From contig CAYWDM010000003.1 in NCBI GenBank assembly GCA_964457085.1, positions 64,218 through 128,217 on the forward strand: DNA of 64,000 nt, in the 5' to 3' direction. Numbering within the stretch: position 1 is the first letter of the stretch; every line of letters begins with the position of its first letter. The notes under the pieces are model-generated. The model did no database searches, was not told the origin of the DNA, and saw nothing but the letters and a program-made list of their open reading frames with translations. A program made the translations under genes and the position numbers. Shown piece after piece: positions 784-44,838 of this stretch. This stretch comes from an uncultured Pseudomonadales bacterium (GTDB taxonomy: Bacteria > Patescibacteriota > Microgenomatia > UBA1400 > PJMF01).

Positions 784-832
784 TCCAGGTACTTCTCTTT
801 GAGTTTCTCAACTAACATGTTAGATTTGATAT

Positions 833-1357: not shown

Positions 1358-1379
1358 ACATTTTATAGTCATCTCACAC

Positions 1380-2613: not shown

Positions 2614-2638
2614 ACCAAATAATCGTGCTGCAAGAGAA

Positions 2639-2671
2639 AGCCCCGTTCATTTTTATGTACGGGGCTTTTTC
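2639..2671 (+). terminator. rho-independent terminator
   Basis: 8-bp GC-rich stem agccccgt/acggggct with 12-nt loop followed by TTTTT. Confidence 0.7.
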
Positions 2672-2757
2672 GTGGCAAATATGTGTGAGCTAGCATAGCA
2701 GCATGTGTGCAAATGAAATTACAGTGCTTTTATTAAAAATGGCTTATACTTTGTGTA

Positions 2758-3378: not shown

Positions 3379-3423
3379 TTTTATTGACAGCTTTTCGTGA
3401 TTTAAAATGACATACTGTCAGAT

Positions 3424-3777: not shown

Positions 3778-3840
3778 ATAGAGTTATCCAGTTTGTAGTT
3801 ATCTATTGATATGACATGTTGACTGATACAATGTTGTCAT

Positions 3841-4233: not shown

Positions 4234-4290
4234 CTGATGCTAGTTTGCTTTCATATTAGTCATCACAGTTGGCTATAATTCGAGTTCGTA

Positions 4291-5448: not shown

Positions 5449-5452
5449 GTGT

Positions 5453-6316: not shown

Positions 6317-6416
6317 GTTTTTATTTTCAATATCCATAAATGAATGTATTGTTTATGTTGTTGTAATAGTTTGATTGGTTGTTTATCTCCTTAGCTTTTT
6401 ACATTACCATGATGGT

Positions 6417-7802: not shown

Positions 7803-7867
7803 GCTTAATATCGGAAGTTTGACGCCGCTGTATTCAAAAGCAAATCTTGATTAGCTTGTGTGAAACT

Positions 7868-8206
7868 ATGTCTACAAAACAAAGCACGGTTGATTTTTTA
7901 CTTGACCAGTTCAATCAGCATACCACGGTGACCTATCGAAAAATGTTTGGTGAATATGCACTCTATTGTCAGGGAAAAGTGGTGGCATTGGTTTGCGAGG
8001 ATCAACTATTTATCAAACCAACTGTAGCGGGGAGAGCATTACTGCAAGAGGTAGATGAACAACCTCCATATCCAGGTGCGAAACTCTATTTTTTAATTTC
8101 TGGTGATGACTGGGATGATGATGAATTGCTGGGACGGTTAATTTTAGCGACTGCCAAAGAACTGCCGTTGCCAAAGCCAAAAAAGAACAAAAAATTTGCG
8201 TTATAA
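7868..8206 (+). CDS. TfoX N-terminal domain protein
   Basis: RKMFGEYALYCQGKVVALVCEDQLFIK matches TfoX/Sxy N-domain core; only N-domain present (112 aa). Confidence 0.55.
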   Translation: MSTKQSTVDFLLDQFNQHTTVTYRKMFGEYALYCQGKVVALVCEDQLFIKPTVAGRALLQEVDEQPPYPGAKLYFLISGDDWDDDELLGRLILATAKELPLPKPKKNKKFAL

Positions 8207-12119: not shown

Positions 12120-12917
12120 TCACCATTTTTTCTCAATTAGTTTCTTGAGCTCATCTTTAGAATGTTTGGAGGTCAAATCCAAGTTAATTGGGGTGATCGA
12201 GACTTTTTTATTTTTCAGGGTGTCAAAATCAGTACCTGGTTTGGTATTACTCAGATCAAGTCCTTTGCGTAGGTGATAAAAATAACTGCCATCATGGCCA
12301 AAAATCTGACCATAGCCATCTCGTGCCAGATCGCCAACTTCGAATTCAGTCTCGGCGGTGGCTTTGAGCGGAATGTTGACTGAAATCAAGTCAATTTCAT
12401 CGGACAGTTCTTGGTCGATTAGTGCAGCGACTACTTTAGTGGTAATGGCTGCGGCTGGTTCGAAGAGATGGTAGTTTTTAGGATCAGTAAAGTTGATTTC
12501 TTTATATTCTTCGTTGGTCATGCTGAGGTGGAGTGAGGAGACCACAGCCTTGACGCCGTTTAACGCTGCTTCCATACCAGCACCGGCGGTGCCTGAGCTG
12601 AGTACTCGACTGCGACCGGCATTGGAACCGGTGTTGATGCCGGAGACTACTAACCGAGGGGGTTCTTTGAGTAAGTTAAATAGGCCAATCTGGATGCAAT
12701 CGGCGGGAGTGCCGTTGACAGTATAAATCTCAAACTCATGGAGCATGGTTTTTTTGTAGTGGAGGTCGGCTTTTTTGGAGATGGATTTGCCCTGCCAGCT
12801 ACGCTGTGAATCGGGCACCACCACCATGACACTAAACTGTGCCGACAGGGCTTTGAGCAGTGGGTAAAAGCCAACACAGTCAAAGCCGTCATCATTGGAG
12901 AGAAGAATATCAATCAT
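12120..12917 (-). CDS. surE: 5'/3'-nucleotidase SurE
   Basis: N-terminal MIDILLSNDDG signature; start set at ATG 12917 (upstream in-frame extension lacks homology). Confidence 0.8.
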   Translation of the reverse strand: MIDILLSNDDGFDCVGFYPLLKALSAQFSVMVVVPDSQRSWQGKSISKKADLHYKKTMLHEFEIYTVNGTPADCIQIGLFNLLKEPPRLVVSGINTGSNAGRSRVLSSGTAGAGMEAALNGVKAVVSSLHLSMTNEEYKEINFTDPKNYHLFEPAAAITTKVVAALIDQELSDEIDLISVNIPLKATAETEFEVGDLARDGYGQIFGHDGSYFYHLRKGLDLSNTKPGTDFDTLKNKKVSITPINLDLTSKHSKDELKKLIEKKW

Positions 12918-13074
12918 GGTTTGATTATACCTGTGACAGGGTGGGTGAGTGAATGCCACAAAGCGGCAAAAAATGCCACTAGTTTGCAAATTGATGTGTA
13001 TTGGTAGCGTCACCCGTTTCTATTTTGACGGTGGTACCATCCTGCTATATAAAGTTCTGCCATGAGTCGCCTTC

Positions 13075-14418
13075 ATGAGTGAGACAGCCGCCGCCCTACA
13101 CATACCTAGAAGTTTCCGTGAGTATTTTCCAGGCCTGGCGCTGCAATTGGAGGCTTGGTTCCCCAAACTTCGTTTCGAAGAAACCACTTTTGATAATTTA
13201 ATGCCGCTGCTATTGGCGGGTGAAGTTCCACACGCAGTGATGCTGTGGTTGATGAATGGTGATAACTGGCAAAAAGCTTTGGTGGATTTGTTTAACGCTC
13301 ATGTCTTGACCCAGAATATAGACAAGGCAGGGCCAAACGTCGATAGATTGGGAATTTTCGCTTCGTTTATTGACCTGCGACAAGATCAAAAATCTCGTAA
13401 ACCAGTGTCTGGTCGTCCCAAAGGCGAGATGGCGATTGTGAAAGCACAGGGCAGTTGGAGTAAGGCCTTGGCAAACATGATGAAGTATGTGGCTGGGGTT
13501 GATTACCTAGTTAATCTTGATGGCCACAGTCATCTGGCCACCACTCATTTTCAGGAAGTAGGAATCGAGGTGATTAACGTGACCACGGCGTTTGTAATGC
13601 TGGAGGAAATTAAGTCACGGGGATTGTTGAATGAAGAGCTGGAAAACATGATTTGTGGAGTGGATTTTGGGAACTTAGCGTTGGTGGAAGCCATCTGTCA
13701 GCGGATGGGCATGGACTACGCCATTATTCGCAAGCAACGGGAAGCCATTAACGGGGGAGTTAAAACCGAAACCACACATGAGTTGGTATACGGCGATGTT
13801 CGCGGCAAACGGGTAGTTCTGATGGACGACATGATTAGCAGCGGTGGCACTTTGATTAAGACTGTGAAGCTATTGATTGAAAATGGTGCGGAGGAGATTT
13901 TGGTCTGTGCCACCCATCCAGTGTTTGCTCCGAGGGAGTATTACGAGAATCTCCAAGAACTATTGAAAATTGATAAGGTAAAGATCGTGATGACGACTAA
14001 TTCGTTGCCACTCAAACGCGCCGAGTTTGGGGGTGATCGGAGTTTGGCCTACATCAAGAAGAAGAAAAAGAAACCACAAAAAGTGGCTGGTGCGGAGGTG
14101 GCGGGTGAGGCAGTAGTGGGTGAGAGTGCGGCAGCTGCTACTGAAGCAGTCGCAGTGCATGCAGATCAGCCAGTTGAGGCTGCACCAACTGAACGGCGAC
14201 AAGTCGAAATGCTTGATATCGACCGCTTTGTCGGCATCATCATCCAGGCGATGATGCACAGCAGCAACACCGATGATATTCGAGCGACATTAAAGGAACA
14301 TGTAGTAGTACAAGATGATCCGTATGCGATTTATGAACGACTCACCGGCAGACATTTAGACAAGCCAGTTGATGTGGGAGTGTACAGAGAAGGAGAGTTT
14401 GAGATGTTTGAGGAGTAA
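13075..14418 (+). CDS. ribose-phosphate pyrophosphokinase family protein with C-terminal extension
   Basis: VVLMDDMISSGGTL PRPP-binding motif, IFASFIDLRQDQK flexible-loop-like region; ~130-aa C-terminal tail with KKKKKKPQK and Ala-rich stretch; start uncertain. Confidence 0.55.
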   Translation: MSETAAALHIPRSFREYFPGLALQLEAWFPKLRFEETTFDNLMPLLLAGEVPHAVMLWLMNGDNWQKALVDLFNAHVLTQNIDKAGPNVDRLGIFASFIDLRQDQKSRKPVSGRPKGEMAIVKAQGSWSKALANMMKYVAGVDYLVNLDGHSHLATTHFQEVGIEVINVTTAFVMLEEIKSRGLLNEELENMICGVDFGNLALVEAICQRMGMDYAIIRKQREAINGGVKTETTHELVYGDVRGKRVVLMDDMISSGGTLIKTVKLLIENGAEEILVCATHPVFAPREYYENLQELLKIDKVKIVMTTNSLPLKRAEFGGDRSLAYIKKKKKKPQKVAGAEVAGEAVVGESAAAATEAVAVHADQPVEAAPTERRQVEMLDIDRFVGIIIQAMMHSSNTDDIRATLKEHVVVQDDPYAIYERLTGRHLDKPVDVGVYREGEFEMFEE

Positions 14419-18715: not shown

Positions 18716-19750
18716 TTATGAAAGGGTGAAGGCGGTTTTTAATTGTGCCCAGGAGGCTGGCGTTTTGCCCTCAAGTTGCAATTGTGGCAGTGTCACTTGG
18801 CTATTTTCCAGACGCAGTTCTAAAATGATCAACCGTTGCTCACCTTTTGGAGTGGGTGCCAAGGTCCAGAGTTTTGGCCAAGGCGAAAAAGCTCGACAGG
18901 CTCGTTCTAACTGTATTGGCCAGTCCGTTGGTGATTGTTGACTGAGTAGTTCTGCCAGTATCGGTGTTTGTGGCTCGGTTGCAGCAGCTTCATTTTGAGT
19001 TTGCTGCAAATATTTAGTAAGGTCAGTAGTGGCTTGTTCGATCCACTCAGCAGTTTTTGTTTGTGTAGCCCGCAGCACTGACCAAGGCACAAAACTATCT
19101 TTTTTATCTAGCCGTCGTGCCATTATGGTTGGTGAAATGGCTGGTTGTGGCGATGCTATTTGGGTATTTTGAGCAATTTTATATAAAGTCTCTGGAATCA
19201 GTGGGGCAATCAAAGTAAACGCCTCAAAGTAGTAGCTGGCACTATTCCAGTTTGGATCAACTGAAAATGTAGGCTGTAGCCAAACGTTGCCTTGATCCAT
19301 GGCAGCTGCCACGGTGATCAACGAAATTGCTGATTCTTTTGCACCGCTGAGTAACACAAATTGTCCGGGTGAGCTGCCTCGCCAAGCGGGTAAAGCCGAG
19401 GGGTGAATATTGAGTGGTTGGATGCGAGCTTGCTGTAGTAACCACTTGGGCACATAGTAGCCAAAATCGACCACTAATAGAAAATCTGCACTCTGTATTT
19501 CGCTTCCGAGCTGACTGGTAACAGCACTGCGACAGTTTTGATCTAGTTTTTTCTCAACTAGCACGGTGGGGATTTTGTTTTCTTCCGCGAAAAGCTGTAG
19601 TGGATTTTTAGTAATTTCTTGTTTGCGACCAATAGGTTTTGGTGCCGGGGTGACGATGAGCTTGATTTCAAAGCGCTGGTCAGCGAGTACCGATTTGGCG
19701 ATGAGGCAGGTGTGGGTTGTAGAACCAGCAATGATGAGTGAATATGCCAT
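18716..19750 (-). CDS. fmt: methionyl-tRNA formyltransferase
   Basis: N-terminal formyltransferase fold, IHPSALPAWRG (HxSLLPxxRG) motif; downstream of def in same operon. Confidence 0.85.
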   Translation of the reverse strand: MAYSLIIAGSTTHTCLIAKSVLADQRFEIKLIVTPAPKPIGRKQEITKNPLQLFAEENKIPTVLVEKKLDQNCRSAVTSQLGSEIQSADFLLVVDFGYYVPKWLLQQARIQPLNIHPSALPAWRGSSPGQFVLLSGAKESAISLITVAAAMDQGNVWLQPTFSVDPNWNSASYYFEAFTLIAPLIPETLYKIAQNTQIASPQPAISPTIMARRLDKKDSFVPWSVLRATQTKTAEWIEQATTDLTKYLQQTQNEAAATEPQTPILAELLSQQSPTDWPIQLERACRAFSPWPKLWTLAPTPKGEQRLIILELRLENSQVTLPQLQLEGKTPASWAQLKTAFTLS

Positions 19751-33616: not shown

Positions 33617-34153
33617 ATGAAAGAGATTAATCGCAAAATAATACTTGATTACAATAAAATGGCAGAGATTGTCCAAGCACATCGTGTCTTGGGACATCGC
33701 ATTGTGTGCACCATTGGCTCATGGGATATGTTGCATATTGGCCATATGAGATACCTCAATCGTGCCAAGGAAGCTGGGGATATTCTCTTAATCGGAGCCG
33801 ACAGTGATCGAGGCATTAAGCTCTACAAGAAAAGCGATTTGCGTCCCATCATTCCTCAAGATGAACGAATGGAAATGCTGGCATATCAAGATTGTGTCGA
33901 CTATGTCACATTAATAGACGATGTCGATGAAAAAGGTGGCTGGCTCTATGGGTTACTCAAAGTTGCCAAACCAGACGTTTTTGTAGCAGTGACTGATAGT
34001 TATCCTCCAGCACAGATTAAAGATATTAAAAAAATGGTCAAGGAAGTTATCTTATTACCTCGCCAAGCAGAGAAGACCTCTTCAACAAACATTATTGAAA
34101 AAACAGTGAAGAGCCATCTTGAAAAAATGCTGTTTCAATTGAAGCAGCGATAA
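33617..34153 (+). CDS. cytidylyltransferase-family nucleotidyltransferase (RfaE domain II-like)
   Basis: GSWDMLHIGH (G.FD.LH.GH) and LIGADSDRGIK...RPIIPQDER motifs parallel heptose-1-P adenylyltransferase / NadM-type enzymes. Confidence 0.55.
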   Translation: MKEINRKIILDYNKMAEIVQAHRVLGHRIVCTIGSWDMLHIGHMRYLNRAKEAGDILLIGADSDRGIKLYKKSDLRPIIPQDERMEMLAYQDCVDYVTLIDDVDEKGGWLYGLLKVAKPDVFVAVTDSYPPAQIKDIKKMVKEVILLPRQAEKTSSTNIIEKTVKSHLEKMLFQLKQR

Positions 34154-34159: not shown

Positions 34160-35032
34160 TTGATGACAGAGAAAGATGCATATTTGAAACCTGATGTGAT
34201 GAATGATCGCAAACTCAATACAAAACCGCCAACTGAGCTAATTCGGAAGGGTCTGGTTTTGTTTGATGGTGATGGTACTGCAACCAATCTTGCTCGAGAA
34301 ATTACACCCCGCACTAGAAAAGCACTTACATTAGCTCATCAAAATCAACTTCGATTTGGGCTCTGTACTGGTCGGCAATTGGCACAATTATGGAATTATG
34401 CCTTGCCGTTATTTCCTGACCAGGCAATGCATGTGTTATCTGGAGGGGCACAAGTTGCAACCACAAAAGGGGAAGTGTTATGGGAACGACGAATTCCAAG
34501 TCAGGTAGTTAGAGAACTATGCGAGCTTGCAGATGCGAATGGCTGTGGTTTTGGATTTGGCACTGGGCCAGTGCTACATGTGAACCAACCGTTATTAGAG
34601 CGTTTTGAAACCGATAGCTGGAAGGTCAAAGCACAAGTTCCAGATTCAAGTTTAGCTGATTGGTCATCACCACTGTTGATTGTTAATCACTTGAATGCTG
34701 ACATGCGTAAAATATTGGACGCAAGTGATTTGGAGGTGAATTACATGATTGGTAAAGGCAATATTCCGTATGCAGATATCACATATAAAGGAGTGAATAA
34801 AGCTGATGGCATACGAGTTTGGGCAGAATTGAATGGTGTAGTTCCTCGAGATATTATTGGCATCGGTGATGGTGATAATGACCTTCCATTTCTAAAGAAT
34901 GTTGGTTGGGCAGTGGCTATGGGTAATGCCTATCCACCGGTCAAGGCAATCGCACAACAAATTATTGGTCACACGGACGATGATGGTTTGGCGATTTTTC
35001 TTGAGCAACTTGTGCAAGCTAGAAATTCTTGA
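34160..35032 (+). CDS. HAD-superfamily hydrolase, Cof-like
   Basis: LVLFDGDGT (motif I), GIGDGDNDLPFL and GNA motifs. Confidence 0.7.
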   Translation: MMTEKDAYLKPDVMNDRKLNTKPPTELIRKGLVLFDGDGTATNLAREITPRTRKALTLAHQNQLRFGLCTGRQLAQLWNYALPLFPDQAMHVLSGGAQVATTKGEVLWERRIPSQVVRELCELADANGCGFGFGTGPVLHVNQPLLERFETDSWKVKAQVPDSSLADWSSPLLIVNHLNADMRKILDASDLEVNYMIGKGNIPYADITYKGVNKADGIRVWAELNGVVPRDIIGIGDGDNDLPFLKNVGWAVAMGNAYPPVKAIAQQIIGHTDDDGLAIFLEQLVQARNS

Positions 35033-35925
35033 GTCCAAATGCTATGAAACAATCAGCACTTATTTTATACATGCCGGTAATCCATCAAGGATATGTGCGT
35101 TTATTGGAGAGTTTAACTCAGAGCTGCCAAATATATGTATTGCAACCTTCTCTGGCGGCTGATTTGCTTGGTATACAAGCTGACCCTGCTACATTGACGG
35201 CGGAAGAGTGTAAGGCCTTTTTAGAGATGAAAGGTTGGGAGGAGGTGCAAACTCTGGTTGCAAATAATCGGACTGAATTGTCTCAAGAGTTAGCATCATT
35301 CTCATCATTTGGTGAGGTACATTTGGTCGATGATCAGGTTGGGCGTGCAATAAACATGTTGCTGCAGTCGCAAGTATCAGCAACAAAAACAGCTCCAGAA
35401 ACTACCTGGCACACTGTTTTTTTACGGTGGGATAGCGATAGCGTCCAACAAACTTTGGCTGTAGATGTTGCAAAAACCACTACTACGGATCATCAAAAAT
35501 GGATGTCGATAGCGGATAAAATTGCAAAAAAAAGTAGTGACTGGTGGCGACAAGTTGGCTCAATTGCAGTAAAAAACAACTCAGAAATTTTACAGGCTTA
35601 CAACCAAGGTATGCCAGATGATCACACCCCATATCAGTATGGGGCGGTTCGTGATTATGTGACAACTGGGAGCTCTCCAGAATTGGCAAATTACATCCAC
35701 AGCGAGCAGAACTTGATTGCACTGGCAGCTGCACAAGGACTGTCACTAGCTGGGGCAGATTTGTACGTCACTCATTTTCCCTGTCCAGTTTGTGCGAAGT
35801 TGATCGCAAAGGCGGGTTTTAAAAAAGTCTATTTTAAAACTGGATCTGCAACACTTGATGGAAAGACCGTGTTAGAACAGCACAACATTGAGTTGATTCA
35901 GGTGATTTTGGATACAGATGACTAG
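35029..35925 (+). CDS. dCMP/CMP deaminase-family protein with ~150-aa N-terminal extension
   Basis: HSEQNLI...PCPVCAKLI zinc-binding deaminase motifs in C-terminal half. Confidence 0.6.
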   Translation: MSPNAMKQSALILYMPVIHQGYVRLLESLTQSCQIYVLQPSLAADLLGIQADPATLTAEECKAFLEMKGWEEVQTLVANNRTELSQELASFSSFGEVHLVDDQVGRAINMLLQSQVSATKTAPETTWHTVFLRWDSDSVQQTLAVDVAKTTTTDHQKWMSIADKIAKKSSDWWRQVGSIAVKNNSEILQAYNQGMPDDHTPYQYGAVRDYVTTGSSPELANYIHSEQNLIALAAAQGLSLAGADLYVTHFPCPVCAKLIAKAGFKKVYFKTGSATLDGKTVLEQHNIELIQVILDTDD

Positions 35926-36928
35926 TGATATTCGTTTGCCAATTACCATTTTGTCTGAGGTGTGTCGAAAAAATGACCTGGACTTTTCTGTGATAGATAG
36001 TTTCTCCAAATCAATTGTGAAGGTGAGTAGGGGAGATCAACATTTCTTAGCTGGTTTAGGAAAAGTGGGTATGTATCCACTTAATGCTCACTACAGTGCG
36101 TCAGTTGCAGGTGACAAAGCATGGACATACCAGCTGTTAACTCGAGCTGGATTTATAGTGCCTAGTGGTGACTATTTTTTTGTGACCAATGATTGGGCAG
36201 AGTTTCGATCTGAAGGTAAAGATATCGAATCTGCAGTAGTGTTTGCAGCTAAACTTGGCTATCCAGTGTTTGTAAAGCCAAACGATGCCTCTTCCGGTGT
36301 GTTGGCTGAATTAATCACTGACGAGCGAGGCCTGCGTGATCATTTACAGCGAATTGCACTCAAAAGTCCAATCGCCCTAGTACAACAGTATCTAGATTTT
36401 CCAGAGTATCGATTGTTCGTAGTTGATGGAGAAGTACAGTATCTATACCGACGCGAGAAACCGAAGGTGATAGGTGATGGTAAGTTGAGTATTATTGAAT
36501 TAATCGAAAAAATGAATCGAGACATTCCCATTGCCAGTCATCGAATTGATGCACAAACAGATTATTTGAAAACGCAGTTACAGCAGCAAAACGTGCAACT
36601 TCAGAATATTTTACCTCTGGGAGAATCATTGTTTGTAGCCGCTCATGCCAACTTGGCTAGTGGTGGTGAGTTACTGGAATATACTGAATCAGTGCCATCC
36701 CAGGTTCACGAATTTGCTGCAACAATTTCCAATGAACTGGGACTACGTGTGGCTGGCATTGATGTCTTCATTCCTGGCAGTTTGACCACCGAAATCTCAA
36801 CCAAAAACTGGACCATAATTGAAGTAAACAGCAACCCAAATCTAGCGGGAATTTACACGCATAATCATCAAGAAAAAGCACTAGAAATTTGGAAAAAAAT
36901 AATATTCAAATTTTTTAATAAAGATTGA
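35918..36928 (+). CDS. ATP-grasp ligase (RimK/CofF-like)
   Basis: PVFVKPNDASSG (ATP-binding Lys), LVQQYLDFPEYRLFVV, IIEVNSNPNLAG (E-x-N Mg site). Confidence 0.6.
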   Translation: MTSDIRLPITILSEVCRKNDLDFSVIDSFSKSIVKVSRGDQHFLAGLGKVGMYPLNAHYSASVAGDKAWTYQLLTRAGFIVPSGDYFFVTNDWAEFRSEGKDIESAVVFAAKLGYPVFVKPNDASSGVLAELITDERGLRDHLQRIALKSPIALVQQYLDFPEYRLFVVDGEVQYLYRREKPKVIGDGKLSIIELIEKMNRDIPIASHRIDAQTDYLKTQLQQQNVQLQNILPLGESLFVAAHANLASGGELLEYTESVPSQVHEFAATISNELGLRVAGIDVFIPGSLTTEISTKNWTIIEVNSNPNLAGIYTHNHQEKALEIWKKIIFKFFNKD

Positions 36929-36929
36929 T

Positions 36930-37676
36930 ATGAACATTAAAGCAGTAAGAACAAAAATTGTACATTGCGGTGACTCAGTGGCTGATTTAATTACCACCTA
37001 TTTGCCAGAAATCGAAGAGAATTCTGTGATTGCCATTGCTTCTAAAATAGTTGCCTATGAACAAAATCAGTGGGTCAAAATAGACGACCAAAACCCAAAT
37101 CAAAAACATGAATTGGTGCAGCAACAAGCCGATTTGTATTTGGCCTCAGAGTATTCAAAATACAACATGATGTTGGCGATAAAGAATCACACGCTGACAG
37201 TGAATGCTGGCATTGATGAGTCAAATGCCGATGGTGGTTTTGTGCTTTGGCCAAAAGATCTGCAAATCTATACGAATCAACTCTGGGAAGTTTTGCGAAA
37301 AAAATATGGCTTGAAAAATCTCGGAATAATCATTACTGATAGTAAAACCACGCCATTTCGTTGGGGTGTGACTGGAGTATGTTTGGCACACTGTGGTTTT
37401 GGAGCATTGCATGATTATGTGGGTGAGCAAGATTTATTTGGCCGACCAATTACCATGGAGCAGACCAATATTTCAGAGGCGGTTGCAGCAGCTGCAACTT
37501 TGGAAATGGGTGAGGTAGCAGAGTCACAACCACTGGCGGTGATTACTGAGATTCCGCTAATTAAATTTCAAGATCGACAACCAACAACAGCTGAGATTGA
37601 CCAACTCAAAATCGAGATTGAGGATGATGTCTATGGTCCACTGCTAACAGCTGTAGACTGGAAAAAGGGCGGTTGA
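36930..37676 (+). CDS. CofE-like protein (F420-0:gamma-glutamyl ligase family)
   Basis: NAGIDESN, GIIITDSKTTPFRWG, DLFGRP...EAVAAAATLEMGE motifs parallel CofE/FbiB N-domain. Confidence 0.5.
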   Translation: MNIKAVRTKIVHCGDSVADLITTYLPEIEENSVIAIASKIVAYEQNQWVKIDDQNPNQKHELVQQQADLYLASEYSKYNMMLAIKNHTLTVNAGIDESNADGGFVLWPKDLQIYTNQLWEVLRKKYGLKNLGIIITDSKTTPFRWGVTGVCLAHCGFGALHDYVGEQDLFGRPITMEQTNISEAVAAAATLEMGEVAESQPLAVITEIPLIKFQDRQPTTAEIDQLKIEIEDDVYGPLLTAVDWKKGG

Positions 37677-37756: not shown

Positions 37757-38581
37757 ATGCAGCAATATCTCGACCTTCTTAAATTTGTGTTGGAAAACGG
37801 AGAAGATAAAGGTGACTACAAAGGTGAGATTAATAATAGAGCTGTTTTTGGCTATACTGCCCGATATAATCTTCAAGAGGGCTTTCCATTACTGACAACT
37901 AAAAAACTACATTTGCGTTCAATACTCTATGAATTGCTATGGTTTTTGCAAGGTAGTACTGACAACCACTGGCTGAATGAACACAAAGTTAGCATTTGGG
38001 ATGAGTGGGCAACCGCAGAGGAGTGTGCTAAATTTGGTCGTGAGCCTGGCGATTTGGGCCCAATTTATGGGGCACAGTGGCGAAAGTGGCAGAAGCGAGA
38101 TGGTGGGGTCATTGATCAGATTGCCAATGTTATTGAAGAGATTAAAACGCGACCGTATTCCAAACGCTTGATTGTAACCGCCTGGAACCCAGAAGACGTG
38201 GAGCAAGTAACGCTCGCACCTTGTCACTCACTATTCAAATTTTATGTGGCTGGTGACAAGTTGTCACTGCAACTTTTTCAGCGCAGTGCGGATGTTTTCT
38301 TAGGGGTACCGTTTAATATTGCATCTTATTCATTGTTGCTGATGATGGTTGCCCAGGTCACCGGGTTGCGACCCTGGGAATTTGTCCACACCATGTCGGA
38401 CACGCACCTCTATCATATCCATATGGAGCAAGCGAAACTGCAGCTCACTCGTGAGCCCAGGTCATTGCCGAAAATGACGATTAATCCTGAAGTGAAGTCG
38501 ATAAATGATTTCAAATTTGAGGACTTTACGCTCAGCGACTACAACCCACATCCACATATTAAAGCTGCGGTTACGATTTAA
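37757..38581 (+). CDS. thyA: thymidylate synthase
   Basis: MQQYLDLL start, [24 protein letters not shown] active-site Cys motif. Confidence 0.95.
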
Positions 38582-38609
38582 ATTCGTACCCATCAAATCG
38601 AAAGGATCG

Positions 38610-39788
38610 ATGCAAAATACACGCAAACAGTGGTTGGCTGCAAGTAAGGCTGGTTTGGCACTCTACGGTCATGATTTTTTGGCTACTTGGGATAAACCTT
38701 GGCCAGCAATTGAGTTGATGCTCTATACCGCCCAGCTTATTCGCGAGATGTACGCTGCCAAAATACCACTGCAGTATTTTCATAATCAAGTTGCAGTCTC
38801 GATTTTCAAAGATCTTTCGACGCGAACTAAGTACAGTTTCGAGTCAGCTGCTAATTTGATGGGTTTTGCAGTTCATGATCTTGACGAAAAACAATCGCAG
38901 GTTGGCCATGGTGAAACAGTGATGGAGACAGCTAACATGATTTCGTTTTTAACTGGCGTTATCGGTATCCGCGATGATAAATACGTGGGAGTGGGACATG
39001 CCTATCAGCAACAGGTTGCGAATTCCGTAGCTCAAGGTTTTGCTGAAGGTGGGTTGTTACAGCAACCACCAATAATTAATCTGCAATCAGATGAGGATCA
39101 CCCAACCCAATCGATGTCAGATCTGCTGCATTTGGCCAATTATTTTGGTGGCGTTGATAAAATTAGAGGTAAAAAAATTACCATTAGTTGGGCATATTCG
39201 CCAACATATGGCAAGCCATTATCGGTGCCTCAAGGTGCATTAGGATTATTGAGCCGTTTGGGCGTCGACCTCACTTTGGCACACCCAAAAGGATATGAAC
39301 TACTGCCGCACTTGATGACTAAAGCTCGAGATCAAGCCAATTTAAGTGGTGGTTCACTGATTGTCACTGATGATATGGCTGCAGCCTTCAAAGGTGCCGA
39401 TGTGGTTTATCCAAAATCTTGGGGTCCATACGACAAAATGTTGCGGCGAACTGAGTTGCTAAAAGTGAATGATCAGTCAGGGTTGACCTCTCTGCAGGCA
39501 GCTGAACTGCAGCAAAATGCACTGCACCAAGATTGGGAGTGTGATGAGGTTAAAATGAAGTCTACTAAAGGTGGCAAGGGTTTGTATTTGCATTGCTTGC
39601 CCGCAGATATCAGCGAGGTCAGCTGTAAACACGGCGAAGTATCTAAATCTGTATTCAACCGCTACCGCAAAGAAACCTATCTACAAGCCAGTTACAAACC
39701 ATTTGTAATTGCAGCCATGATGCTGCTGGGTGCAGGCGGTAAGGGTGGAGTGGAGTGGCTAAAAAAAGCTTCTGCAAAAGTTGGGTGA
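38610..39788 (+). CDS. aspartate/ornithine carbamoyltransferase family protein (long, YgeW-like)
   Basis: STRTKYSFE (STRTR-like CP-binding), HPTQ and HCLP motifs; 392 aa from ATG 38610 (AAAGGA RBS), longer than canonical OTC/ATC. Confidence 0.7.
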   Translation: MQNTRKQWLAASKAGLALYGHDFLATWDKPWPAIELMLYTAQLIREMYAAKIPLQYFHNQVAVSIFKDLSTRTKYSFESAANLMGFAVHDLDEKQSQVGHGETVMETANMISFLTGVIGIRDDKYVGVGHAYQQQVANSVAQGFAEGGLLQQPPIINLQSDEDHPTQSMSDLLHLANYFGGVDKIRGKKITISWAYSPTYGKPLSVPQGALGLLSRLGVDLTLAHPKGYELLPHLMTKARDQANLSGGSLIVTDDMAAAFKGADVVYPKSWGPYDKMLRRTELLKVNDQSGLTSLQAAELQQNALHQDWECDEVKMKSTKGGKGLYLHCLPADISEVSCKHGEVSKSVFNRYRKETYLQASYKPFVIAAMMLLGAGGKGGVEWLKKASAKVG

Positions 39789-39795: not shown

Positions 39796-40242
39796 TCATC
39801 CTATTGGAAACTTCACCACATGCGCCCTGCCTGTTCGTCGATTGATTTTTGGCACAATCAAATGAAAGTGCAGGTGGCAAACAGTGGCACCCGTATGCAC
39901 TGTGTCACCAAATCGCAGTGTTAAACCACCACCAGCTAATTTGAATTCATTTTGTGCCCAAGCAGCCAGTTGTTTTACTGCGCTCAAATCATCGATTGTC
40001 AGTTCATCAAGTGCTTCTTTATGGATAGTGCTAATGATTAGAAAATGTTCTGCTGCATGTTTATATGGCCAACTGTTGCGGGTAATCAACCAATCACCAC
40101 ATTTTTTCAGGATTGGCTCTTTATGGTATTTGAAATGTTCAGGACAAAAAGGACAGGTGCCAGCTTCGCTTACAGACTCTAATATCTGGCGATATTCATC
40201 GCTTTTGGCATAGGTGGGATCAACCACTTTTTTTGCTGTCAT
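39796..40242 (-). CDS. HIT-family protein
   Basis: CPFC N-terminal and HLHFHLI histidine triad. Confidence 0.6.
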   Translation of the reverse strand: MTAKKVVDPTYAKSDEYRQILESVSEAGTCPFCPEHFKYHKEPILKKCGDWLITRNSWPYKHAAEHFLIISTIHKEALDELTIDDLSAVKQLAAWAQNEFKLAGGGLTLRFGDTVHTGATVCHLHFHLIVPKINRRTGRAHVVKFPIG

Positions 40243-40319: not shown

Positions 40320-41504
40320 ATGAGTGATGGTGAAATGAGAAAAGCAGCAGGTTTCGAGCAACAGCGTTTGAGGGAGACTACCACGCCCGAGGCTTTAGTT
40401 GATGCAGTGGTCCAAGCTGAATTTCAAACGAAAGATTCTCAAACCACCCTAGCATTAGTGGCTGGAGAAGCTATTCAACCTGGAAAAGATCAGCTGTCGG
40501 CGACAGTTAATACAGAGGCGGCGATAGTAATTCTTCAAACTCTTCAACAAAAACGATTGAGTCGAGAAGACGCAGCGAAAGAAAGTCCTGAGTTGAATCA
40601 AGCTGAAACTGCCCGGGCTTTTCAATCAGCGATTGATGATTTGGTAGCAACTCAGTGCATTAGTCTTGAGCTTGCGGCACAAGTTGCACAGATTTTACCA
40701 GTCGAAAACTTAAAAACAGTTAAGGGTAACTATGCCCGGTTTGGATATCTTTCTGATACTTTCCCTAAGGATCGAAGCGGAGCCGGGATAATTGAAGTTG
40801 GTGACAAAATTATTGCTACTTTTGCTGAAAAAATCCGACAAACTGCACTCCAGGCAGGCGTGGAATTAACCGAGACACAATGTCAGGAGGTTGCGACTAA
40901 GCGGGTACTCATGCATGAGTATGGGCATGCGGTTAAACAGACTAAAAAAATAGTAGCGTTTGAATCTGCGGTGGCTGCTGGAGAAAAGGATGAGGAATAT
41001 CACCTTCGCAATAGTCTTGAAAATACAACGAATGCAAAAATTGCTGCAGTGGCACCCTGTCCAGAATTGGCTCAGGTATTTGTTGGTGAGCCAGTCGATT
41101 CTTCTCGGGCAGCAACCGAGTTGCTAACCATGGATGAACGAATAGCAAGTGGGTTTGAACTGATTGGTTTGTCACAAGCGTTGCAGAAAATTGGAGTCTC
41201 TGGGGAGCAGTCTCAAGCCATGATCAAAAGCATCATGCAAGAGGAGGCACTGAAGTTTCGAGAGAAACAAATGGTTATAGAATTTGCGAGATCAAAAGGG
41301 TTATCGATTACTCAACTCAACGATGCCACAAGTTCACTTTTCATTTCCTTGCATCAGGAACACCCAGAGTTGGCAGAGTTATGTCGAGGTGGGTTTAATG
41401 CTGCATTTATGGGGTACAATTTTCCTCTGACTTTGAGCGAAATTACCAGATTTTGTCAGTCAGATATACTGACTGAACTTGAAAAGAAACCAATCGTTTC
41501 ATAG
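40320..41504 (+). CDS. hypothetical protein with HExxH motif
   Basis: 394 aa; single HEYGHAV zinc-metalloprotease-like motif, otherwise unassigned. Confidence 0.4.
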   Translation: MSDGEMRKAAGFEQQRLRETTTPEALVDAVVQAEFQTKDSQTTLALVAGEAIQPGKDQLSATVNTEAAIVILQTLQQKRLSREDAAKESPELNQAETARAFQSAIDDLVATQCISLELAAQVAQILPVENLKTVKGNYARFGYLSDTFPKDRSGAGIIEVGDKIIATFAEKIRQTALQAGVELTETQCQEVATKRVLMHEYGHAVKQTKKIVAFESAVAAGEKDEEYHLRNSLENTTNAKIAAVAPCPELAQVFVGEPVDSSRAATELLTMDERIASGFELIGLSQALQKIGVSGEQSQAMIKSIMQEEALKFREKQMVIEFARSKGLSITQLNDATSSLFISLHQEHPELAELCRGGFNAAFMGYNFPLTLSEITRFCQSDILTELEKKPIVS

Positions 41505-41536: not shown

Positions 41537-42118
41537 ATGGAAGTTTTTATAATTGCAGCAATTACACTTGATGGATACATTGGCCGAACTGCGAGTGACC
41601 GGTCGTTTGATTGGACAACGGCTGAAGACAAGGCAGAATATATTTCTAAAATCAAGGAGTCTAAGCATTTGGTGATGGGGAATACTACACTGCGTATCGT
41701 TAAAAGATTTCCAGTTGATACCACGGTATATGCGTATACCAGACAACCAGAACAATTTTCTGCCGAAGGCTTGAGTCATGCGGCTACCTACCAGCCGACT
41801 TTCGAAAAACCTAGCGAGTTAGTCGAGCGGTTGACGGCAAGTGGGGTGCAGCAATTAGCAATTTGTGGCGGTGCCAGCATCTATCAACAATTTTTAGTAG
41901 CGGGTGTGGTTAATAAGCTCTATCTCACTATTGAACCAGTGTTATTTGGTCGAGGAATTAAATTGTTTGGTGAATCTATGGAAAACCGGCTGCAACTAGT
42001 TGAGAGTCGAGTACTCAATAGTCATGGGTCAGTTTGGCTTGAATACGATGTGCTGCCTGCCGGTGAGCTACAAAACACTAGTAATGATTTGCTAGAAAAA
42101 ACACTCTATGAAAGTTAA
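41537..42118 (+). CDS. folA: dihydrofolate reductase family protein
   Basis: MEVFIIAAITLDGYIG start and ICGGASIYQQFL region parallel DHFR (IAA...IG / GGG.VY..FL). Confidence 0.6.
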   Translation: MEVFIIAAITLDGYIGRTASDRSFDWTTAEDKAEYISKIKESKHLVMGNTTLRIVKRFPVDTTVYAYTRQPEQFSAEGLSHAATYQPTFEKPSELVERLTASGVQQLAICGGASIYQQFLVAGVVNKLYLTIEPVLFGRGIKLFGESMENRLQLVESRVLNSHGSVWLEYDVLPAGELQNTSNDLLEKTLYES

Positions 42119-42542
42119 ACTCAAATTATTTGATACCACATTACCAACTCCAGCATATAAAACAGCGGGAGCAGCGGCCTTTGACTTGTATGCTCGGTTA
42201 GAAGTAACTATTCCAGCCCATCAAGTAGGATATGTGCCACTGAACATCGCGCTCCAGTTGCCCAGTAACTGTTGGGCACAGGTCTCGGCTCGAAGCTCTT
42301 TGCACAAGCGTGGGCTAATTTTAGCCAACGGTATTGGGGTTGGTGATAGTGATTATCGAGGTAATAACGACGAATATATTGCAGCACTGCTTAATTTTAC
42401 TGATCAGCCGGTAGTCGTTGAACGTGGGGAGCGGGTAGTGCAGATGATTATTATGGAGCGAGAAAAAACAGAATTTGAGCTGGTGACTGAGTTTGTAGAT
42501 AGTGATGATCGAGGTGGTTTCGGGAGTACTGGGAAACACTAG
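42108..42542 (+). CDS. dut: dUTP diphosphatase
   Basis: ARSSLHKRG, GVGDSDYRGN, DRGGFGSTG motifs III-V. Confidence 0.9.
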   Translation: MKVKLKLFDTTLPTPAYKTAGAAAFDLYARLEVTIPAHQVGYVPLNIALQLPSNCWAQVSARSSLHKRGLILANGIGVGDSDYRGNNDEYIAALLNFTDQPVVVERGERVVQMIIMEREKTEFELVTEFVDSDDRGGFGSTGKH

Positions 42543-42573: not shown

Positions 42574-43218
42574 GTGTCTATGGATACTAATTCGAATAAG
42601 ATGGAACCCCTAACAACTAATGATTCAGTTTTACCAAGCGAGTCAGACAGTGATAAATCATCAGCGACAGTTGACCAACTGCCTCCGGTTGACGCGCCAG
42701 AGATGCAGATGAATCATAAGTTCCAATCAAAAAAATTCCCAAAAAAACTGAAGTATATTTTTGCAAGTGCATTGTTGCTACTGTTGGTAGTTGGGGCAGC
42801 TGCAGCCTTTTTTTTAACCCAGACCAACCAGGATTTAAGACAGCAGGCTGCTGGAGCAACGTACGTTCGCTGTCAGAAAGGTGGTTTTTGCCCACTCGGC
42901 TCTGATTGTAATAAAGCTACTGGTATCTGTGAGGCAAAGCAGAAATGTAAATCACATGAGGCATGTCCTTCCACTAGTTTATGTAGCCCACAAGGTTTTT
43001 GTGAGCCAAAAAGATTTTGTACTACAAGTCGTGAGTGTAAGGGTACCGAGATTTGTCCGGGTAGTATTTGTGTGCCTTGTAGTAAAAAGGGGGAAGGCGG
43101 CTGGGTGTCAGGTGGAAAAGACACATGTTGTCCAGGGTTAAAGTTAAAACAATTGGATAAAACTTGCAATAAGTGGCCAAAATATACTCCATGCCCTGAG
43201 CAGCGATGCTCACCCTAA
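42574..43218 (+). CDS. cysteine-rich membrane-anchored protein
   Basis: 214 aa; N-terminal TM (ALLLLLVVGAAAAFFL), C-terminal 130 aa with ~24 Cys in repeated C-x-x-x-x-C / GxC spacing. Confidence 0.45.
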   Translation: MSMDTNSNKMEPLTTNDSVLPSESDSDKSSATVDQLPPVDAPEMQMNHKFQSKKFPKKLKYIFASALLLLLVVGAAAAFFLTQTNQDLRQQAAGATYVRCQKGGFCPLGSDCNKATGICEAKQKCKSHEACPSTSLCSPQGFCEPKRFCTTSRECKGTEICPGSICVPCSKKGEGGWVSGGKDTCCPGLKLKQLDKTCNKWPKYTPCPEQRCSP

Positions 43219-44190: not shown

Positions 44191-44838
44191 ATGGCAGCAA
44201 CAGGATATTTAATTACTTTTGAAGGCGGTGAAGGTGTGGGCAAAACCACCCAAGTGGCGTTGTTAAAAGAGCGGTTCCAGAAAATTGGCAAAGAAGTAGT
44301 TATCCTCAGAGAACCAGGTGGCACAGTGATTAGTGAGCAAATTCGAGAAGTGGTTTTGGCCAAAAAAAATGCTGCTATGTCAGATACCACTGAAGTATTG
44401 CTTTTTCAGGCTGCGAGAGCTCAAATTTATCAAGAATTAGTAATTCCGGCACTGGCCAAAGGTAAAATTGTGTTAATGGATAGATCTCGTGATAGTAGTG
44501 TGGTGTACCAGGGAATGGTACGTGGTTTTGGCAAGAAATTAATTGAACAACTAAATGATATCTCTACCAGTAAAACGCATCCAAATCTGACTTTTTTACT
44601 CGATGTTTCGGTTGATATCGGCTTAAAGAGACGAGAGGATGATGGCGATACCAATCGGCTGGAAGATGAAGCAAAAACCTTTCATCGAAAAGTTCGAGCT
44701 GCCTATCAACAATTAGCAGAAGAAAACCAAGGTCGTCGCTGGCATGTCATTGATGCCAAAAAACATATTGATGAAGTTGAAAAAGTGATTTGGGAGATTA
44801 TTAGCACTAAATTAAAACTGGATAACGACGAGAGATAA
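44191..44838 (+). CDS. tmk: thymidylate kinase
   Basis: ITFEGGEGVGKTTQ P-loop, DRS lid region. Confidence 0.9.
   Translation: MAATGYLITFEGGEGVGKTTQVALLKERFQKIGKEVVILREPGGTVISEQIREVVLAKKNAAMSDTTEVLLFQAARAQIYQELVIPALAKGKIVLMDRSRDSSVVYQGMVRGFGKKLIEQLNDISTSKTHPNLTFLLDVSVDIGLKRREDDGDTNRLEDEAKTFHRKVRAAYQQLAEENQGRRWHVIDAKKHIDEVEKVIWEIISTKLKLDNDER

Follow-up and report, generated by a model that had tools for sequence, protein, structure and literature searches.

A FolC2-type ligase gene and a candidate ATP-grasp partner in a folate and thymidylate gene cluster of Patescibacteria

Introduction

Genes for a dCMP-deaminase-like protein, an ATP-grasp ligase and a CofE-like protein lie immediately ahead of thyA in a 64-kb window (the whole stretch of DNA that was analysed), which raises the question of what a ligase pair of this kind would act on in such a place. 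ATP-grasp ligases that act on the glutamate tails of cofactors include CofF, MptN and MyfA/MyfB (PMC8498797, PMC8141765). An initial reading of the window from its letters alone (the sequence-only reading) had proposed that the ATP-grasp and the CofE-like protein form a functional pair, with folate as a possible substrate.

Results

Organization of the locus

The coordinates of the three ORFs, all on the + strand, were confirmed, and the junctions were read directly (Table 1). The tight packing described in the sequence-only reading was confirmed: the deaminase stop and the ATP-grasp start share an 8-nt overlap (35918-35925, ATGACTAG), the ATP-grasp stop (36926-36928) is followed by a 1-nt spacer and the CofE-like ATG at 36930, and an 80-bp gap separates the CofE-like stop at 37676 from the probable thyA ATG at 37757. 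The thyA ORF is open from 37706, and public gene calls and the sequence indicate 37757 as the likely start. The upstream HAD ORF ends with a TGA at 35030-35032 (+), and the start candidates for the deaminase are TTG 35029 and ATG 35044, of which the latter is likelier (293 aa, as in the gene calls of public assemblies). A consensus scan of the + strand from 33000 to the thyA start found no terminator-like sites between the genes, the nearest such site on this strand being at 38251-38269, inside the thyA coding region. The motifs quoted earlier (HSEQN...PCPVC, NAGIDESN and DLFGRP) are present in the translations, and the three family assignments hold (PF00383, a RimK domain and PF01996).

Table 1. 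Features of the locus, in window coordinates
Feature	Coordinates	Strand	Remarks
Deaminase N-terminal domain, aa 1-152	35029..35484	+	HIGH-motif nucleotidyltransferase-like (cytidylyltransferase-like, HUP class) Rossmann fold
dCMP-deaminase-type zinc deaminase domain, HSE...PCPVC	35485..35925	+	PF00383 (dCMP_cyt_deam_1) at aa 153-270, E 1e-18
ATP-grasp carboxylate-amine ligase, 336 aa	35918..36928	+	Rare family; predicted folate glutamate-tail ligase
CofE-fold FolC2-type gamma-glutamyl ligase, 248 aa	36930..37676	+	TIGR04132 252.8 bits; PF01996 (F420_ligase) E 3e-33
thyA, thymidylate synthase	37757..38581	+	PF00303 E 2e-110; NF002497 410.8 bits vs cutoff 327
DHFR-like reductase (RibD_C/DHFR_1)	41537..42118	+	PF01872 E 7e-14; PF00186 E 2e-6
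dut (dUTPase)	42108..42542	+	dTMP-cycle cluster member; second dUMP source
tmk (thymidylate kinase)	44191..44838	+	PF02223 E 4e-46; downstream dTMP cluster member

The neighbours are as first read: thyA, a DHFR-family gene, dut and tmk. A carbamoyltransferase, of the YgeW type, is also among them. In many CPR loci the gene of the DHFR-like reductase, which presumably recycles the dihydrofolate that ThyA produces, adjoins that of a CofE-type ligase, and in one locus the two overlap by 8 nt. In about 20 CPR loci, as in the window lineage, dut is kept 3' of the DHFR-like gene. Since the closest relatives belong to Microgenomates-type Patescibacteria (Woese-, Beckwith-, Pace- and Levybacteria), the Saccharibacteria affinity suggested earlier is not indicated. 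The region is best explained as the folate/thymidylate section of a long operon carried by a small-genome bacterium of the Patescibacteria (CPR).

The CofE-like protein

The CofE-like protein is quite likely a folylpolyglutamate synthase (FPGS) of the FolC2 type, as judged from its family and gene context. The FolC2-type model TIGR04132 matches residues 1-246 at 252.8 bits, whereas the CofE equivalog models reach only 112-114 bits over residues about 10-215, below their cutoffs of 180-304, and the same pattern is repeated in 7 other family members. The view that this is no F420 enzyme is supported. The trusted cutoff of TIGR04132 is 350, so the protein counts as sister to the validated FolC2 of Chlamydia rather than as a certified equivalog. 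Its C-terminal 40 aa are unalignable to CofE, yet conserved within its own family; R234 of Archaeoglobus fulgidus CofE, in the corresponding region, contacts the F420 chromophore (PMC10861534). No F420-pathway Pfam families were seen among the window ORFs scanned.

The family comprises 1,611 homologs, mostly from Patescibacteria, some of which had already been named folate gamma-glutamate ligase or DHFS/FPGS by the source pipelines. Among 80 related FolC2-type loci, 25 have thyA, DHFR or glyA within 10 kb, and DHFR and thyA lie within 300 nt of the CofE-like gene in 16 and 9, respectively. A cluster of the form deaminase-HIT-thyA-CofE-like-DHFR-like-dut recurs in Pace-/Microgenomates-type genomes. 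Canonical FolC was found neither in the 64-kb window nor in the 80 FolC2 loci by tblastn with four FolC queries.

An enzyme of this kind is already known, as Chlamydia CT611/FolC2 (2007) rescues an E. coli folC mutant (PMC1971073, PMC4161248). We infer FPGS activity for the CofE-like protein because of CT611, given the family relationship and gene context found here, and by this analogy it is predicted to replace FolC. The earlier suggestion of an alternative to FolC agrees with the predicted function, but is not a novelty, since FolC2/CT611 and TIGR04132 already exist.

The ATP-grasp ligase

The ATP-grasp protein has a RimK domain (E 1e-9), with K120 in a VFVKP motif and E302-x-N304. Membership in the CofF, MptN or RimK families, to which the sequence-only reading had likened it, is ruled out by scores far below the cutoffs (18.6 vs 300, 31.7 vs 350 and 65.7 vs 143.4 bits for the CofF, MptN and rimK_fam models); the LysX model gives 41.6 bits with a cutoff of 275.6. 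The closest characterised sequence relatives are the G domain of cyanophycin synthetase and the C-terminal module of GshAB (66-70 bits in the PDB, 100-121 bits on NCBIfam models), and the best structural neighbours are ArgX/LysX and RimK, which act on a C-terminal glutamate. In 99 of 100 neighbour-joining bootstraps the family stands apart from its outgroups, GshAB and CphA. Because it is not closely related to CofF and MptN, their specificity and regiochemistry are not transferable to it.

In the window lineage the ATP-grasp ORF overlaps or abuts its neighbours in 4 distinct loci (51-57% identity), and the trio with the deaminase and the CofE-like gene occurs only there. With this lineage excluded, 25 informative loci were counted. 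Canonical FolC directly adjoins the ATP-grasp in 10 of these, the FolC partners scoring 216-304 bits with TIGR01499 (cutoff 162.65) and carrying FOL3_C; in one of them (L128) the ATP-grasp is sandwiched between two FolC genes with overlapping ORFs. A CofE-type FolC2 is the direct neighbour in 2 of the 25, one of which (L108) additionally has 5-formyl-THF cycloligase (5-FCL), folA, dcd, thyA and glyA. DHFR lies within 1 kb in 2 loci, and several have further folate genes nearby (5-FCL, glyA, thyA). Both clades of the family contain folate-linked members, and the loci range from 34 to 72% GC. That the same ATP-grasp is kept while the non-homologous synthase beside it is swapped between FolC and FolC2 suggests that it works with FPGS. 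Comparative genomics shows the partnership that had been proposed, with folate as the predicted and best-supported substrate.

No folate gene was found within 5-8 kb in 11 of the 25 loci, which include four of the nearer relatives of the window protein (35-43% identity). MATCAP-like carboxypeptidases lie on its flanks in one subclade (two loci), a hint that some members take the C-termini of peptides or proteins as substrates. None of the 80 other FolC2-type loci carries the ATP-grasp, which is therefore dispensable for FolC2 function. The trio is thus not co-conserved: the deaminase and CofE-like genes are widely found together in CPR dTMP clusters that lack the ATP-grasp. No LysW-type small acidic carrier protein is evident adjoining the ATP-grasp in the window.

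The two-domain deaminase

The best solved relatives of the deaminase domain are dCMP deaminases (cyanophage S-TIM5, 4p9c, E 1.5e-15; Streptococcus mutans, 2hvv; T4, 1vq2; human, 2w4l). The protein is likely a dCMP deaminase that would convert dCMP to dUMP for ThyA, in keeping with the supply role first suggested for it. Its N-terminal 150 aa have no Pfam match, but are no longer unexplained: they are a HIGH-motif nucleotidyltransferase-like fold, which probably binds a nucleotide. The two-domain architecture is common to 1,570 homologs of 270-300 aa, and since more than 1,500 Patescibacteria deaminases have it, the N-terminal domain is not specific to this locus. Sixteen FolC2 loci that lack the ATP-grasp also encode the two-domain deaminase.

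Discussion

Comparison with known systems

The CofE-like protein resembles Chlamydia FolC2 (the 'putative folate metabolism gamma-glutamate ligase' of TIGR04132, its best full-length model) in its CofE fold, its clustering with folate-dependent genes (DHFR, thyA), the lack of a canonical FolC seen nearby and its predicted replacement of FolC. It differs in scoring under the trusted cutoff as a member of a sister clade, and in being coupled to an ATP-grasp in the window lineage. Chlamydial folC2 belongs to an operon for de novo folate synthesis (folB-folKP-folA-folC2-ct610), whereas the window gene lies in a dTMP-cycle/salvage cluster.

CofE and CofF likewise combine a CofE-fold gamma-ligase with an ATP-grasp (CofF being an alpha-L-glutamate ligase) on a cofactor glutamate tail, but the cofactor there is F420 and here would be folate, the window ATP-grasp falls outside the CofF/RimK family, and no F420 genes were seen. 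MptN (tetrahydromethanopterin:alpha-L-glutamate ligase) and MyfA/MyfB (methylofuran glutamate ligases) are ATP-grasps too and extend the tail of a C1-carrier cofactor with glutamate, although they represent another branch and other cofactors. Loci with an ATP-grasp and FolC, a Mur ligase, mirror the logic of CphA1 (G ATP-grasp plus M Mur-ligase), in which separate ligases serve the alpha-carboxylate and the side-chain carboxylate. Unlike CphA1 and GshAB, the window ATP-grasp stands alone, lacking N and M domains, belongs to a separate family and has bona fide FolC or CofE-type FolC2 as partners. RimK, LysX and ArgX differ in having proteins (S6, LysW) as acceptors.

To our knowledge, no gene is assigned to the E. 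coli activity that forms alpha-carboxyl-linked folylpolyglutamates. This activity, known as such only (Ferone et al. 1986), matches the chemistry predicted here, an alpha-linked glutamate on the distal folate tail made by an enzyme distinct from FolC. The deaminase shares the zinc motif H-[AS]-E...P-C-x-x-C with the classical dCMP deaminases (T4 Cd, human DCTD, S. mutans, cyanophage S-TIM5), and it would similarly supply dUMP for ThyA; it differs by the extra ~150-aa domain, which has H-x-G-Y replacing H-x-G-H and lies outside Pfam models. The score with the ComEB equivalog is 52, below the cutoff of 219.

Alternative explanations

The ATP-grasp could be an operon passenger with a non-folate substrate (a peptide or protein C-terminus, or a glutathione-like small peptide), its adjacency to the CofE-like gene being incidental. 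We consider this unlikely, though it deserves weight: it would account for the 11 loci without folate genes, nearer relatives included, for the MATCAP-like neighbours and for the 80 FolC2 loci without an ATP-grasp, and it agrees with the products of the closest sequence relatives (cyanophycin, glutathione) and the protein substrates of the structural neighbours. However, the gene adjoins FolC in 10 loci and the non-homologous FolC2 in the window lineage and 2 more, often with overlapping ORFs, in both clades and across the whole GC range, while by chance far fewer than 1% of loci would be expected to have it beside a gene present in one or two copies; a LysW-type carrier, moreover, is not evident next to it in the window. 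We are more doubtful of a folate role without an alpha-linked cap, namely a DHFS-like addition of the first glutamate to pteroate, redundant gamma-glutamates or a non-glutamate amino acid. The FPGS linkage serves this reading equally well, regiochemistry cannot be carried over from CofF or MptN, and the relatives use other amino acids, the CphA G domain adding aspartate and GshB glycine. Against it, the two FolC paralogs of L128 would already cover DHFS and FPGS, and the CphA analogy, with the ATP-grasp on the backbone alpha-COOH and the Mur ligase on the side-chain COOH, would favour alpha chemistry. A DHFS variant would also be unnecessary if CPR genomes salvage folate, as is generally described for them (folA/glyA/folD, without de novo synthesis; PMC11974145).

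An ordinary F420 tail pair of CofE and a CofF-like ATP-grasp, for which the PF01996 domain and the CofE/CofF precedent (PMC8498797) might speak, is very improbable and was rejected: the CofE models give half the FolC2-model score, the CofF cutoff is far from reached, CofC, CofD, CofG and CofH were not found among the window ORFs scanned or the annotated flanks of relatives, and the surroundings are thyA, DHFR and dut. Equally improbable is a module in which the three proteins hypermodify a pyrimidine nucleotide, an idea of the sequence-only reading that gained no support. Tight coupling beside thyA/dut/tmk and a nucleotide-binding-type domain on the deaminase would suit it, but the two-domain deaminase is widespread and often without the ATP-grasp, which elsewhere pairs with FolC, 5-FCL, folA and glyA and not with deaminases, and thyA encodes a standard thymidylate synthase, above the equivalog cutoff. 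Hardly credible is a split cyanophycin-synthetase-like polymerase, with the ATP-grasp as G domain and a Mur ligase as M domain making an amino-acid polymer; CphA G domains are the best sequence matches and many loci have a Mur-ligase-family partner, but these partners pass the folC cutoff, carry FOL3_C and match the CphA model only locally (up to 36 bits), the contexts of the ATP-grasp include DHFR, thyA, glyA and 5-FCL, and the window partner is a CofE-fold enzyme.

Proposed pathway

The best overall explanation, to which we assign a probability of roughly 55%, is a FolC2-type FPGS with a partner ATP-grasp on the folate tail and a dCMP deaminase. The FolC2-type ligase would convert the gamma-carboxylate of the terminal glutamate of salvaged folate to an acyl-phosphate and then add L-glutamate. 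In CofE the activation step is GTP/Mn-dependent. The ATP-grasp, coupled translationally ahead of the CofE-like gene, would act on the same glutamate tail, and we think it reasonably probable that it acts on folate together with FPGS. It would phosphorylate the free alpha-carboxylate of the terminal glutamate in an ATP-dependent step and then add an amino acid, glutamate being a first guess. The product would be an alpha-linked cap or extension, comparable to the products of CofF (F420) and MptN (methanopterin) and to the distal tail of folate in E. coli, where alpha-linked glutamates occur according to the citation of Ferone 1986 in PMC1971073. The alpha-linked cap is put forward tentatively, by analogy, and both the linkage and the identity of the amino acid are speculative.

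The two-domain deaminase would feed dUMP to ThyA, and its N-terminal domain may serve as an allosteric sensor of the dCTP/dTTP type or as an accessory catalytic site. Polyglutamylation would keep folate in the cell and let it serve ThyA, DHFR and related enzymes better as a cofactor. The new part of the locus is the ATP-grasp, probably a folate-tail-modifying enzyme of a kind not described before.

Results

Gene layout upstream of thyA

The three plus-strand ORFs directly upstream of thyA are as the sequence-only reading had described them, and their families and neighbours were confirmed using Pfam and NCBIfam. The deaminase stop overlaps the ATP-grasp start by 8 nt (ATGACTAG), the CofE-like ATG follows the ATP-grasp stop after a 1-nt spacer, and a gap of 80 bp precedes the probable thyA start (37757). 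A simple scan of the plus strand from 33000 up to thyA revealed no intergenic terminator-like site; the closest one (38251-38269) lies within thyA. The neighbours comprise thyA, a YgeW-type carbamoyltransferase, a HIT-family gene, a DHFR/RibD_C-like gene, dut and tmk.

Features of the window and of the homologous loci compared with it (L-numbers)
Locus	Feature	Position	Strand	Remark
Window	Deaminase-like gene	35029-35925	+	ORF present; probable true start ATG 35044, 293 aa, matching public gene calls
Window	ATP-grasp gene	35918-36928	+	ORF present
Window	CofE-like gene	36930-37676	+	ORF present
Window	YgeW-type knotted carbamoyltransferase	38505-39788	+	Likely start 38607
Window	Cytidylyltransferase-like protein	33617-34153	+	178 aa; PF01467
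Window	HIT-family protein	39796-40242	-
Window	Protein with no Pfam match	40320-41504	+	394 aa
Window	Cysteine-rich protein	42574-43218	+	Predicted membrane anchor
Window	Formyltransferase	18716-19750	-	Formyl_trans_N; likely fmt
Window	SurE	12120-13013
Window	PRPP-synthetase-like protein	13075-14418
L128	FolC, ATP-grasp, FolC	749-4372		422, 346 and 446 aa
L108	Folate/dTMP island	813-7353
L100	LOG/'lysine decarboxylase'-family gene	6915-7556		PF03641, SLOG
L007	MATCAP-like metallocarboxypeptidase	6737-7972		PF08014
L093	MATCAP-like metallocarboxypeptidase, two copies	287-1546; 3532-4857		PF08014

The CofE-like protein as a probable FolC2-type synthase

The protein encoded at 36930 carries the domain of the CofE/F420-ligase family, as had been proposed, with F420_ligase PF01996 matched over residues 6-205 (E = 3e-33, 115.6 bits). 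Its scores lie below the CofE equivalog cut-offs, which range from 180 to 304 bits across models (TIGR01916 / NF009809: 112.2 versus 180.65 and 113.7 versus 274). The best model is TIGR04132, 'putative folate metabolism gamma-glutamate ligase', which covers residues 1-246 of 248 with 252.8 bits, ~2.2 times the best CofE score, and a like pattern was obtained for seven further family members (202-262 bits with TIGR04132 versus 92-130 with the CofE models). The curated (trusted) TIGR04132 cut-off of 350 is missed by the window protein and by all CPR members tested (202-262). The last ~40 residues are unalignable to CofE and strongly conserved within the family, with F213, E222, D232, D233, P237 and W244 invariant. 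In Archaeoglobus fulgidus CofE, the F420 chromophore pocket is lined by the C-terminal R234 from the dimer partner (PMC10861534), and an altered C-terminus would therefore be expected for an altered cofactor.

Searches recovered 1,611 relatives of the window protein, for the most part from Patescibacteria; some are named in their source as 'putative folate metabolism gamma-glutamate ligase' or 'dihydrofolate synthase / folylpolyglutamate synthase', and others as F420 ligase. Examination of 80 related genome loci revealed thyA, DHFR or glyA within 10 kb of the CofE-type gene in 25, with DHFR in 16 and thyA in 9 at a distance of 300 nt or less. The typical order is nadD-nadE-cytidylyltransferase-like-deaminase-HIT-thyA-CofElike-DHFRlike-dut, and in one of the compared loci (L020) an 8-nt overlap joins the CofE-like ORF to the DHFR-like one. 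Canonical FolC, the Mur-ligase-type folylpolyglutamate synthase (FPGS), was found neither in the window nor in the 80 loci, flanks of up to 10 kb being covered. The F420 core genes cofC, cofD, cofG and cofH were absent from the scanned ORFs of the window and from the annotated flanks of relatives, and no genes of de novo folate synthesis were seen among the ORFs scanned in the window.

A non-homologous, CofE-type synthase is known from Chlamydia, where CT611 (FolC2), a COG1478/CofE homologue located in the chlamydial folate operon, complements an Escherichia coli folC mutant (PMC1971073; PMC4161248); CT611 is the one enzyme of this type with FPGS/DHFS activity shown by folC complementation (PMC1971073). 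We conclude that the CofE-like protein, whose score is under the cut-off of 350, is a predicted FolC2-type folylpolyglutamate synthase and a sister of the chlamydial enzymes. The earlier proposal of a folate substrate thus stands in part: folate polyglutamylation is favoured by the TIGR04132 match and the clustering with thyA, DHFR and glyA, while the supposed alternative to FolC is not new, since it is already known in kind as FolC2. The F420 (CofE) reading was rejected on HMM scores and gene context, and an F420-type CofE/CofF pair is disfavoured likewise, with both the CofE and the CofF scores below their cut-offs. Nor did a nucleotide-modification module find support, and the relatives indicate Microgenomates-type Patescibacteria rather than the Saccharibacteria that had been named.

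A rare family of ATP-grasp ligases

The 336-aa window protein has the ATP-grasp superfamily fold and ATP/Mg-binding motifs of a complete ligase, with conserved catalytic residues and a confident structure model (pLDDT 91.8). It misses the cut-offs (in bits) for CofF (18.6 versus 300), MptN (31.7 versus 350), rimK_fam (65.7 versus 143.4), RimK NF007764 (16.5 versus 331) and the LysX family. Among characterized proteins, it is closest in sequence to the G domain of cyanophycin synthetase and the C-terminal module of GshAB. Cyanophycin synthetase consists of N, G and M domains, an architecture that the window protein does not share, and its model is matched in the G-domain region only (positions 206-451 of 862; 120.7 bits versus 850).

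The family, which we define here as the FPGS-associated ATP-grasp family, is rare, with 23 matches in a word-indexed search of 5.8 billion proteins. In a distance (neighbour-joining) tree with two outgroup segments only, GshAB and CphA, its two main clades, A and B, were set apart from these in 99 of 100 bootstraps. One homologue (L005, contig SRR25425413_288; 39% identity) is carried by an archaeal-looking contig encoding Spt4, S27e, S24e and Rpb7 (28% GC), and the family thus crosses the boundary between bacteria and archaea (DPANN-like).

The ATP-grasp gene adjoins folylpolyglutamate synthase genes in many loci

The deaminase-ATPgrasp-CofElike trio and its surrounding synteny are kept in four distinct loci (ATP-grasp identity 51-57%), which make up the window lineage. 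Beyond it, the co-conservation in relatives that the sequence-only reading required was rejected, as the ATP-grasp gene occurs in none of the 80 other CofE-type loci. When its neighbours were counted in 25 informative loci outside the window lineage, the gene was found to adjoin an FPGS gene, FolC or FolC2, in 12, as it does in all window-lineage loci. The partner is canonical FolC in ten (L092, L094, L096, L097, L101, L102, L106, L107, L127 and L128), scoring 216-304 bits with TIGR01499 against a cut-off of 162.65, and CofE-type FolC2 in two (L099 and L108). A further two (L100 and L105) have DHFR within 1 kb, together with dcd and thyA, and purL divergent from the ATP-grasp gene. No folate gene was seen nearby in the remaining 11 (L005-L008, L091, L093, L095, L098, L111, L131 and L132), which include some nearer relatives of the window protein. 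The first view, taken from L005-L008, where the homologues stand alone among unrelated genes, was of the ATP-grasp gene as a solo passenger; it was overturned by a metagenome scan and neighbour clustering, which together with family scans brought out the FolC linkage.

The FPGS-linked members fall in both major clades and in loci of 34-72% GC, so the linkage extends beyond CPR and does not go back to one inherited arrangement. We infer that chance adjacency to a partner gene present in one or two copies would occur at well under 1% per locus. Since the partner may be either the Mur-ligase-type or the unrelated CofE-type synthase, the functional tie of the ATP-grasp protein appears to be with the reaction rather than with any one protein. 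Nothing was found in the literature on ATP-grasp proteins partnering with folylpolyglutamate synthases.

In L128, two FolC paralogues, both with FOL3_C, enclose the ATP-grasp gene in a compact three-ligase folate glutamylation operon with ORF overlaps of 8 nt and 19 nt, which would be a promising experimental system. In another lineage, the L108 island comprises glyA-thyA-dcd-CYTH on the minus strand, folA on the plus strand, the CofE-type ligase (minus) and the ATP-grasp gene with 5-formyl-THF cycloligase (plus); the gene for the CYTH-domain protein thus lies with dcd on one side and folA on the other. The LOG-family gene of L100 lies immediately downstream of the ATP-grasp gene, in surroundings of purL, folA, dcd, thyA, deaminase and glyA. 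Fusion ORFs of 592-864 aa in L092, L094 and L096 were dismissed as open-frame artefacts of high-GC DNA, being Arg/Pro/Ala-rich, domain-free and without mutual similarity.

In one subclade (L007 and L093), the ATP-grasp gene is flanked by genes for MATCAP-like metallocarboxypeptidases, which suggests that some members act on the C-termini of peptides or proteins. This pairing of ligase and carboxypeptidase recalls tubulin tyrosine ligase and MATCAP and, by that analogy, is a hint that a C-terminal residue may be added reversibly.

The two-domain deaminase

The C-terminal half of the first protein is a dCMP-deaminase-type domain (PF00383, E = 1e-18, 67.6 bits versus a cut-off of 25) in which the zinc-binding and catalytic motif H-[AS]-E ... 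P-C-x-x-C is present as HSEQN...PCPVC. The closest solved structures in the PDB are the dCMP deaminases of cyanophage S-TIM5, Streptococcus mutans, T4 and human, and the protein falls short of the ComEB equivalog level (TIGR02571, 52.2 versus 219.45). The N-terminal ~150 aa (N-domain) have a Rossmann-like HUP fold resembling that of the HIGH-signature nucleotidyltransferases (cytidylyltransferase-like), with an invariant H19-x-G21 followed by Y instead of H-x-G-H. A Pfam search of this domain up to E = 5 gave nothing meaningful, with no match to PF01467, and the second, C-terminal signature of HIGH nucleotidyltransferases was not identified in it. Exhaustive searching returned only 9 cluster representatives, the N-domain diverging fast. 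The full architecture is present in 1,570 matches of 270-300 aa from many Patescibacteria groups, and it occurs also in FolC2 clusters without the ATP-grasp gene and in L100. Apparent 'solo' N-domain proteins seem to be contig-end fragments, two of which (P0150 and P0151) stop within the deaminase domain.

The neighbouring 178-aa cytidylyltransferase-like protein (RfaE-domain-II-like, weakly FAD-synthetase-like) is of the same fold class as the N-domain, and its gene accompanies the two-domain deaminase in many CPR loci in the order nadD-nadE-cytidylyltransferase-like-deaminase. An origin of the N-domain as a duplicate of this gene was rejected: hhalign aligned the HxG motif alone, with a probability of 0.6%.

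Other genes in the window

The YgeW-type carbamoyltransferase (NF005538, 512.6 bits versus a cut-off of 453; TIGR03316, 507.9 versus 500) lies directly 3' of thyA in this reduced genome; it is found also in L003 and L004 and not in L010. The HIT gene is placed between deaminase and thyA in ~14 CPR loci (deam-HIT-thyA-CofElike-DHFRlike-dut), and from this conserved position its product may act as a nucleotide hydrolase in the same pathway. The 394-aa protein has a homologue in L010 (38% identity), encoded between HIT and the DHFR-like gene, and the cysteine-rich protein is encoded after dut. The formyltransferase, near which SurE and a PRPP-synthetase-like protein are encoded, would fit a requirement for 10-formyl-THF. 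ARAGORN detected neither tRNA nor tmRNA genes in the whole 64-kb window (1-64000).

Discussion

We hypothesize that the ATP-grasp family is an unrecognized folate-tail ligase, which works with FolC or FolC2 and extends folylpolyglutamates by an alpha-linked glutamate or a different amino acid; the proposal is a tentative one, to which we assign a probability of roughly 30%. FolC2 would extend the gamma-carboxylate of the terminal glutamate on salvaged folates, presumably via a GTP/Mn acyl-phosphate of the kind described for CofE (PMC10861534). The ATP-grasp protein would then phosphorylate a second carboxylate of the same folate tail and add an amino acid. By analogy, the terminal glutamate would most likely be attacked at its free alpha-carboxylate; both the regiochemistry and the choice of amino acid are speculative. 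In cyanophycin synthetase, the ATP-grasp and Mur-ligase domains act on different groups, the backbone alpha-carboxylate and the side-chain carboxylate, respectively. F420 is capped with alpha-glutamate by CofF (PMC8498797), and MptN adds alpha-glutamate to methanopterin, the methylofuran tail being built by MyfA/MyfB (PMC8141765). These pairs of gamma-ligase and ATP-grasp form a kindred system, from which the present one would differ in its folate substrate and in its branch of the ATP-grasp superfamily. For E. coli folates, alpha-linked glutamates in the distal tail, arising from an activity distinct from FolC, are described in the work of Ferone (1986) as cited in PMC1971073. The deaminase would provide dUMP for ThyA, and the DHFR-like protein, dut and tmk would complete the dTMP cycle.

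The two-domain deaminase is widespread and uncharacterized. Its HIGH-nucleotidyltransferase-like domain, fused to over 1,500 dCMP deaminases of Patescibacteria, could represent a new module, catalytic or nucleotide-sensing, that controls dUMP supply.

Polyglutamylation governs the retention of folate in the cell and its performance as a cofactor, and for host-dependent bacteria that salvage folate it is probably the key step in holding the scavenged vitamin. The wide use of the CofE-type synthase in CPR is under-appreciated, and the protein frequently still carries an F420 annotation, which can wrongly imply that these organisms have F420 metabolism. What is new is an ATP-grasp family whose gene accompanies FPGS of the Mur-ligase and CofE types alike, a concrete, clonable and testable candidate enzyme for a third step in building the folate tail. 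If the proposal is true, it would supply a gene family for alpha-linked folate tails of the sort that biochemical work on E. coli described in 1986, an observation for which no gene is known, and would mean a chemically distinct, capped folate in some CPR, DPANN-like and high-GC bacteria.
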